A stretch of DNA of 46,206 nt from the sequence record PV340541; one strand, given 5' to 3'. The notes under the pieces were generated by a model. That model had not been told where the DNA came from, did not search any database, and worked only from the letters and a program-made list of their open reading frames with translations. This stretch comes from Escherichia phage mEp332. Of the stretch, positions 44,463-45,206 are shown in pieces. Position 1 is the stretch's first letter; each line of letters begins with the position of its first letter. The position numbers were made by a program, and so were the translations under genes.

Positions 44463-45206
44463 ATGGCAACTACATGTTCAGTTATATTGATTTTGGAGTC
44501 CTTTGATGTTTATTTCGGAAAAGAGAGTGTGTTTCTGGAGAGAGGTTCATCTGTACTTGTCGACTCTAGCTCTAGAGATTTTTTCCTGACATATCCTGAA
44601 AGAGTGATAGTGGCGGATTTTGGCGCTGAGTTTATTAGTCGCTATTTGAAAGCTAATAACTTAAGGGATATTTCTGATTGTAGGGAATATCCATCTTATT
44701 TAAAAATAAACTTTGCTGACTTCAGTTTAATTAAAGGATTAATTAGTTGGGCTAATCACTGTGCTGAATACATAGAAATTTTTGATGAGTCTATTGCTTT
44801 TACATGTCTCTCTGCATTTTCTTCTGAAAAACAATTTGGAGTATTTCTGTTTGAATGTTTGAAAAGCACAGAGGCTAAAGTTAAAACGATTATTCATACG
44901 GATTTATCTGCACCATGGCGTCTTAAGGATATATCATCAAGATTATATCTCAGCGAAAGTTTACTAAAGAGGAAATTGAAAGAAGAGGGGGTATCATTCA
45001 GTAAGATCATACTTGATGAGAGGATGCAAATGGCTGAATATTTACTCAGCACTCGTTGTTATCCTATTAGTAAAGTAGCTAAGGTCTGTGGTTATGCCAG
45101 TGTCTCATACTTTACTTATGTATTTAGACGTTATTTTGGTGTTTCTCCAAGTCAATACTCTCAGAGGAGTTCAGAAATTAAAATTCTTACTCACCAGGGA
45201 ATCTGA
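44463..45206 (+). CDS. AraC/XylS-family transcriptional regulator (YdeO/GadX/AppY-like), 247 aa
   Basis: C-terminal dual HTH region (…WRLKDISSRLYLSESLLKRKLKEEGVSFSKIILDERMQMAEYLL...GYASVSYFTYVFRRYFGVSPSQY) characteristic of AraC-family proteins; AT-rich. Confidence 0.85.
   Translation: MATTCSVILILESFDVYFGKESVFLERGSSVLVDSSSRDFFLTYPERVIVADFGAEFISRYLKANNLRDISDCREYPSYLKINFADFSLIKGLISWANHCAEYIEIFDESIAFTCLSAFSSEKQFGVFLFECLKSTEAKVKTIIHTDLSAPWRLKDISSRLYLSESLLKRKLKEEGVSFSKIILDERMQMAEYLLSTRCYPISKVAKVCGYASVSYFTYVFRRYFGVSPSQYSQRSSEIKILTHQGI

Follow-up and report, generated by a model that had tools for sequence, protein, structure and literature searches.

The patE locus at the right end of a lambda-like prophage

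The window analysed in this work was the whole 46,206-nucleotide stretch of Escherichia phage mEp332 DNA (PV340541), a complete lambda-like prophage in prophage orientation. The lambda att core GCTTTTTTATACTAA was present exactly at positions 2-16, followed by the P' arm and by int on the minus strand, which encodes a 356-aa integrase, and the gene order ran on through the head and tail genes to J, lom, stf (39653-42376) and tfa (42376-42957). Between tfa and the right end of the prophage lay the gene of an AraC/XylS-family regulator, for which the name patE is used below, with the following features around it.

43622-43818, plus strand: right-end arm of a serU-integrating lambdoid prophage (putative fossil attR arm), recognised by its match to an O111:H8 junction
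43819-43878, plus strand: 3' 60 nt of tRNA-Ser(CGA) serU, from the anticodon loop to CCA, matching the att core of a serU-integrating phage
43879-44156, plus strand: apparently captured chromosomal serU-yodB intergenic DNA, 278 bp
44157-44211, strand not assigned: short filler resembling an IS630-family element, on weak evidence (H168, 91% over 55 bp)
about 44221-44462, plus strand: patE's own upstream region, about 240 bp, which travels with the gene (alignment A4)
44400-44429, plus strand: predicted promoter TTGGCA-18 nt-TATACT, 10 of 12 positions agreeing with the sigma-70 consensus, 34 nt 5' of the ATG
44453-44458, plus strand: Shine-Dalgarno-like GGTGGA, read from the sequence, 4 nt 5' of the patE ATG
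44463-45206, plus strand: patE coding sequence, 247 aa; the product is an AraC/XylS regulator whose N-terminal domain resembles that of YdeO/GadW and whose C-terminal part holds a double helix-turn-helix (HTH)
45211-45710, minus strand: ISEc48-like remnant of the IS3 family (IS2 group), comprising the right inverted repeat and the 3' part of transposase orfB, with the terminus taken from alignment A2
45711-45990, strand not assigned: further IS fragments, including an N-terminal fragment of an IS3-family orfA at 45758-45904 (plus strand), from the RefSeq annotation of the identical IAI1 region and the ORF list
46040-46206, plus strand: lambda-type att P arm at the right prophage end; the window stops just short of the core

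E. coli IAI1 matched positions 42815-46206 at 98.7% identity, and its sequence continued with the core TTTTTTATACTAA and then with ybhB-bioA, the classical lambda attachment site. Directly 3' of tfa, a stretch of about 660 bp (42958-43621) had a GC content of 29-30%. No ORF longer than 48 aa and no Rfam match was found in this stretch, where IAI1, PhiR70_1 and ev099 annotate tiny hypothetical ORFs at most.

The patE reading frame was intact in the six-frame ORF list and ran from ATG 44463 to the TGA at 45204-45206, encoding 247 aa. An in-frame GTG occurs at 44454, 5' of this ATG. ATG 44463 was chosen as the start because GGTGGA lies 4 nt upstream, because RefSeq annotation uses the same ATG in identical loci, and because the N-terminal register agrees with that of the paralogues: the product starts M-A-T-T-C-S-V, and YdeO (MSLVCSV), AppY (MDYVCSV) and GadW (MTHVCSV) share the pattern M-x-x-x-CSV. 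The RBS block GGTGGATGATATGGCAA was invariant in two patE homologues of 78-83% identity (alignment A4).

A complete C-terminal DNA-binding domain with two HTH motifs was found at residues ~140-235, placing the product in the AraC/XylS family. Pfam HTH_18 (PF12833) aligned to residues 158-235 and to positions 2-80 of its 80-position profile (58.4 bits, cut-off 33.6; E 8.7e-16), and HTH_AraC (PF00165) matched two stretches (E 1.3e-16, 60.7 bits against a cut-off of 26.6). The best NCBIfam models were YdeO first and GadX second, both far under their cut-offs. Membership of the YdeO equivalog (NF007407) was rejected at 148.7 bits against a cut-off of 348, with 34.7% identity to K-12 YdeO, and that of the GadX equivalog (NF007432) at 111.1 bits against a cut-off of 500, with the C-terminal half alone matched. 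These scores indicate that the window protein is related to both regulators and equal to neither. The GC content was 0.32-0.37 over the patE ORF, compared with 0.44-0.63 in the neighbouring tail genes and about 0.5 in the phage overall.

These results agree with an earlier note on this DNA, made from the letters alone, in several respects. It had placed the gene in the b region between the tail-fibre genes and attP, which is correct, as tfa ends at 42957 and the att P arm forms the right end. The complete AraC-type regulator with a C-terminal dual HTH which it described is borne out by the 247-aa ORF and the nearly full-profile Pfam domain. Its label "YdeO/GadX/AppY-like" was accurate given the ranking of the two NCBIfam models, and the DNA around the gene is indeed AT-rich.

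Flanks of the gene and its upstream DNA

On the 3' side of patE, positions 45209-45710 shared 95.8% identity with DNA annotated as ISEc48 and about 70% with IS2. The element starts with TG in its terminal inverted repeat and carries a DDE integrase-core orfB, as expected of the IS3/IS2 group, and no more than its 3' 500 bp survive. Alignment A2 compared the window with four copies or remnants in unrelated contexts, namely plasmid pO111_3, EV36, E. coli B and MS1494. Agreement of all four contexts started at the TG at window position 45211, with TGTTCTTGCCCCC thereafter in three of the four, and 4 nt of non-IS DNA (ACAT) separated the patE stop codon, which ends at 45206, from this terminus. 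The earlier note was right in reporting an IS3-family remnant on the 3' side of the gene, but its stop codon does not fall exactly at the IS terminus, which lies 4 nt further on. No terminator-like site was found between the patE stop and the IS remnant in a site scan of the region.

The same note had asked whether the IS junction altered the C-terminus of the regulator, and comparison with intact homologues revealed no such alteration. P0021 (83% identity, 244 aa) and P0022 (78%, 247 aa), which have no IS nearby, had C-termini within 0-3 residues of that of the window protein. P0022 uses the same TGA as patE, and its similarity to the window ceases 2-3 nt after this codon, where the IS begins (A4); more distant relatives at 46-55% identity, 237-244 aa in length, end in the same C-terminal region. 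Since IS-free homologues at 78-83% identity finish at the same place, the C-terminus of the patE product is, on these alignments, native. An IS-truncated or IS-fused C-terminus was ruled out by alignments A2, A3 and A4.

The "long" homologues of 306-308 aa proved to be artefacts. In P0016 an upstream ORF had been fused by a frame change, and P0020 (308 aa; 5 member sequences, 16 contigs) represents a late patE frameshift that reads into the IS remnant. An overlapping +1-frame ORF at window 45088-45387 is the one used by this frameshift variant.

On the 5' side, the earlier note had described about 580 bp of AT-rich upstream sequence. AT-rich sequence is present, but it is composite instead of a single uniform spacer, and positions 43819-44156 consist of the tRNA-Ser fragment and serU-yodB DNA. 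This part was 96.7% identical to K-12 (L003:4001-4338), and the longer stretch 43622-44156 was 96.3% identical to the prophage/yodB junction in O111:H8 (L004), where a lambdoid prophage that carries nleC and is integrated at serU has its right end. Phage SerU-LTIIb also matched the stretch 43622-43818. ARAGORN found no complete tRNA in the window because the serU piece is a 3' fragment only. Two Rfam hits, the plastid psbI-rps4 3'UTR at 43824-43875 on the minus strand (40.9 bits against 68) and tmRNA at 43850-43867 (16.9 bits), were rejected as sub-threshold echoes of this fragment.

When the 3' half of a tRNA is displaced and runs on into its native downstream flank, the arrangement looks like an attR. 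The presence of both in the b region indicates that this segment is, as judged by sequence comparison, the fossil attR of a serU-integrating lambdoid phage lying inside the b region of an attB-lambda phage. In 524 genomes the serU fossil ran into the patE upstream region without a break, and in the copy carried by prophage CP-933H similarity to the window started exactly at the tRNA fragment. The filler at 44157-44211, which matched plasmid DNA annotated as IS630-family transposase, was absent from K-12 serU-yodB, and the patE cassette may be bracketed by IS scars on both sides.

The limits of the cassette were visible in alignment A4, where similarity to two homologues in other lambdoid prophages began near 44221 and stopped 2-3 nt past the patE stop. 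The predicted promoter block was almost invariant in these homologues (A4 columns ~272-308), and TTGGCA-18-TATACT was the sole strong promoter-like site on the plus strand of the 44221-44462 block. Promoter-like sites in the region as a whole were at chance level or below, with 2 found against 5.0 expected.

The two homologues, at L016:6001-6735 (83%) and L017:832-1575 (78%), are located between the antiterminator gene Q and the holin gene S. The Q-holin interval is the slot of stx in Stx phages.

Beside the predicted -35 hexamer, positions 44382-44396 (GGTTTTTTATACTGA) matched 13 of the 15 positions of the lambda att core. About 0.08 such matches would be expected by chance in the window, and this one is probably a coincidence in AT-rich DNA.

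With its atypical GC content, its predicted promoter, and an upstream block and ORF of its own recurring in three unrelated phage contexts, patE has the properties of a moron. The three contexts are the lambda-like b region, the e14/Mu-tail-type remnant CP-933H and the Q-S interval of other lambdoids.

Orthology with PatE of O157:H7 and related regulators

The window protein was identical in 244 of its 247 residues (98.8%), over the full length, to the CP-933H protein of EDL933 and Xuzhou21 (WP_000246059.1). In both strains patE was present in a single copy in the decayed prophage next to proA-thrW, that is CP-933H, whose gene order was integrase remnant, cI, cro, cII, O/P remnants, invertible tail-fibre segment, pinE, GIY-YIG gene and patE. 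The flanking DNA was shared as well, window 43816-45684 aligning to the EDL933-type locus (L002:8617-10483) at 98.8%. Full-length near-identity together with common flanks reveals a locus module, beyond what would be expected of a mere paralogue. As the thrW prophage remnant of EDL933 contains exactly one AraC gene, the window gene is very likely patE, the orthologue of Z0321; the link to Z0321 is positional, through the sole AraC gene of CP-933H.

The window and EDL933 copies have the same upstream region, including the serU fossil, and the same ISEc48-like remnant 4 nt after the stop. They differ in three substitutions in the window allele (G131E, G137E and S239I) and in their location, which is the decayed thrW remnant CP-933H in EDL933 and a complete lambda-like prophage at attB-lambda in the window. 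The IS remnant of the window also reaches 45710, 26 bp beyond that of the EDL933 copy, and is followed by other IS scraps.

Z0321 has been listed as "putative regulator (prophage CP-933H)" of O-island 8, and its expression in EDL933 was high and RpoS-dependent, with log2 values of 12.4 in the wild type and 10.0 in the rpoS mutant, a ratio of 6 (PMC2907692). According to a 2024 review, PatE is an AraC/XylS regulator encoded by z0321 on OI-8. It activates gadB, gadC, gadE and hdeAB through a cis-element located between -132 and -45 in the hdeA promoter, and six LEE genes are under its negative control (PMC10877973). PatE and PsrB are mentioned in a paper on AppY as AraC regulators from prophages that act on AR2 (PMC10057817). 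The suggestion of the earlier note, which does not name PatE, that a phage-borne AraC regulator of acid-resistance or virulence regulons could act in lysogenic conversion is therefore supported by an orthologue with 98.8% amino acid identity in O157:H7 and by shared flanking DNA. Of the doubts which that note had attached to its suggestion, a lack of expression in any condition is contradicted by the strong, RpoS-dependent expression of Z0321 in EDL933 (PMC2907692), and truncation or inactivity as judged from homologues by the full-length gene which the homologues display.

Among the relatives, P0021 and P0022 resemble patE in length, in the same upstream block of ~240 bp with promoter-like site and RBS, and in the same stop position. 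They differ in lying in a late-operon moron slot, without the IS and without the serU fossil. Identity to the window protein was 46% for P0035 and 52-55% for a group of 243-244 aa proteins that is widespread in E. coli and also present in many Lambda_ev phages. Members of this group at 52% identity (P0027 and P0028, 243 aa) share the architecture and the phage-borne location with PatE and form its sister clade, but the identity is 52% only; the group possibly corresponds to PsrA (Z1789) and PsrB (Z2104). In a neighbour-joining tree the PatE group and the 52% group clustered together, apart from YdeO/GadX and AppY/GadW.

The K-12 AR2 regulators were more distant, with 34.7% identity for YdeO, 33.5% for GadW and 35% for GadX, the last over the C-terminal part only. 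They have the same two-domain layout, and PatE is placed on the same regulon by the review (PMC10877973), but they are chromosomal genes and not phage-borne, and the window protein falls far below the YdeO and GadX equivalog cut-offs. AppY of the K-12 prophage DLP12 (L014:1682-2431) is likewise a prophage-borne AraC regulator, and its gene has a location equivalent to that of patE, just after the tail-fibre assembly genes tfaD/tfaX near the prophage end. It is 28.4% identical to the window protein and lies outside the PatE clade in the tree, and it also induces AR2 genes, through gadE, according to the AppY paper (PMC10057817). By analogy, this suggests that lambdoid prophages repeatedly accommodate AraC-type AR2 regulators at their tail-fibre-distal end.

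A 1-kb region containing patE was found in 658 of 5426 complete E. coli genomes, O157:H7 strains among them, nearly always once in each, at 95% identity or more and mostly at 99% or more. Two complete phage genomes on deposit carry the module at 43600-45720 with 99.2-99.3% identity. One is Lambda_ev099 (Radostvirus ev099), in which the module has the tail-fibre assembly gene on one side and attP-int-xis on the other; the second is PhiR70_1, for which the host is listed as E. coli C. As read from these sequences, its presence on deposited phages supports transmissible lysogenic conversion over a relic confined to dead prophages.

Activity of the window allele and its effect on the host

We consider it highly probable that patE is a self-contained cassette, made up of promoter region and ORF, which encodes an AraC/XylS activator and is carried by a lambda-like temperate phage in its b region, and that it raises the GAD/AR2 acid resistance of the host. 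In a lysogen, patE would probably be transcribed from its own predicted promoter, mainly in stationary phase and dependent on RpoS by analogy with EDL933. [quoted passage not shown] The regulon and the RpoS dependence are those described in the literature for the 98.8% identical EDL933 protein, and the window allele would be expected to behave in the same way.

The three substitutions bear directly on this expectation. Residue 239 is Ile in the window allele and Ser in EDL933 PatE, and residues 131 and 137 are Glu in the window allele (codons ~44853-44855 and 44871-44873) and Gly in EDL933 PatE and in all homologues down to 46% identity. An intact gene could therefore be an impaired passenger owing to the Gly-to-Glu changes before the DNA-binding domain, or a passenger silenced by H-NS, and in either case the host would be unaffected. 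H-NS typically silences such AT-rich DNA, and patE is AT-rich and lies among IS debris. In addition to the frameshifted copies, some strains have IS1A inserted at the equivalent of window 44257, 206 bp 5' of the patE ATG (L006:6288-6985 and L007:6288-6985), and in strain PCP06171 (L012:4288-5065) IS1A abuts the last 60 bp of patE, the remainder of the gene being deleted. These natural IS1A variants could change or abolish patE expression.

On the other hand, positions 131 and 137 belong to the linker before the DNA-binding domain and are unconserved in YdeO, GadW and AppY. Both Gly-to-Glu changes were present in IAI1, the exact window protein was encoded on at least 1000 contigs, and hundreds of genomes retained a full-length patE ORF with a nucleotide identity of at least 98%. 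The orthologue in EDL933, moreover, is highly expressed (PMC2907692). An allele so common is unlikely, by this sequence evidence, to be inactivated, and we regard a passenger without host effect as an improbable reading of the locus.

Somewhat less probable still is a PatE-family regulator with main targets unlike those in EDL933; these might be other prophage genes, or an anaerobic, biofilm or motility regulon of the AppY kind. According to the AppY paper (PMC10057817), the regulons of AraC paralogues in this group overlap but are distinct. Three residues differ from the EDL933 protein, and likely hosts, which would be IAI1-like commensals, may be without the LEE. Against this, the DNA-binding domain (residues 140-235) is fully identical to that of EDL933 PatE, so that DNA specificity should match, and the GAD/hdeAB regulon belongs to the core of E. 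coli.

That PatE regulates the phage itself, its lysogeny or its tail-fibre expression, is very hard to credit: patE adjoins the tail-fibre genes, and some transcription factors of prophages govern operons of the phage as well as of the host, as the title of one study indicates (PMC11879457), but this cassette is found in phage backbones unrelated to one another and at different positions in them (b region, CP-933H, Q-S interval), which fits an autonomous moron and not an integral phage regulator, and the PatE targets given in the review are host genes (PMC10877973).

For the acid-resistance cassette that we favour, the fossil attR suggests, from its sequence, capture by aberrant excision. A tentative history, which we hold to be possible but rather less than probable, is that the IS-bracketed cassette landed by serU, was taken up by aberrant excision of a serU prophage together with the attR and 278 bp of flanking DNA, in a manner resembling specialised transduction, and then recombined into attB-lambda and thrW phages. 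Lambda-like carriers would in that case move the activator among commensal E. coli, and G131E and G137E could alter its activity.

PatE is a regulator already characterised, and its location is of a known kind. To this the present analysis adds that patE also occurs outside the EHEC lineage, both on a complete lambda-like prophage and in two complete phage genomes on deposit. The IS junction is corrected, the C-terminus is no IS artefact, and the fossil serU attachment junction upstream hints at a route of capture. These additions are modest and leave the current understanding unchanged: PatE, as established for O157:H7, is a phage-carried regulator plugged into a core host stress regulon, GAD/AR2, which bears on stomach passage and, in EHEC, also on type III secretion.
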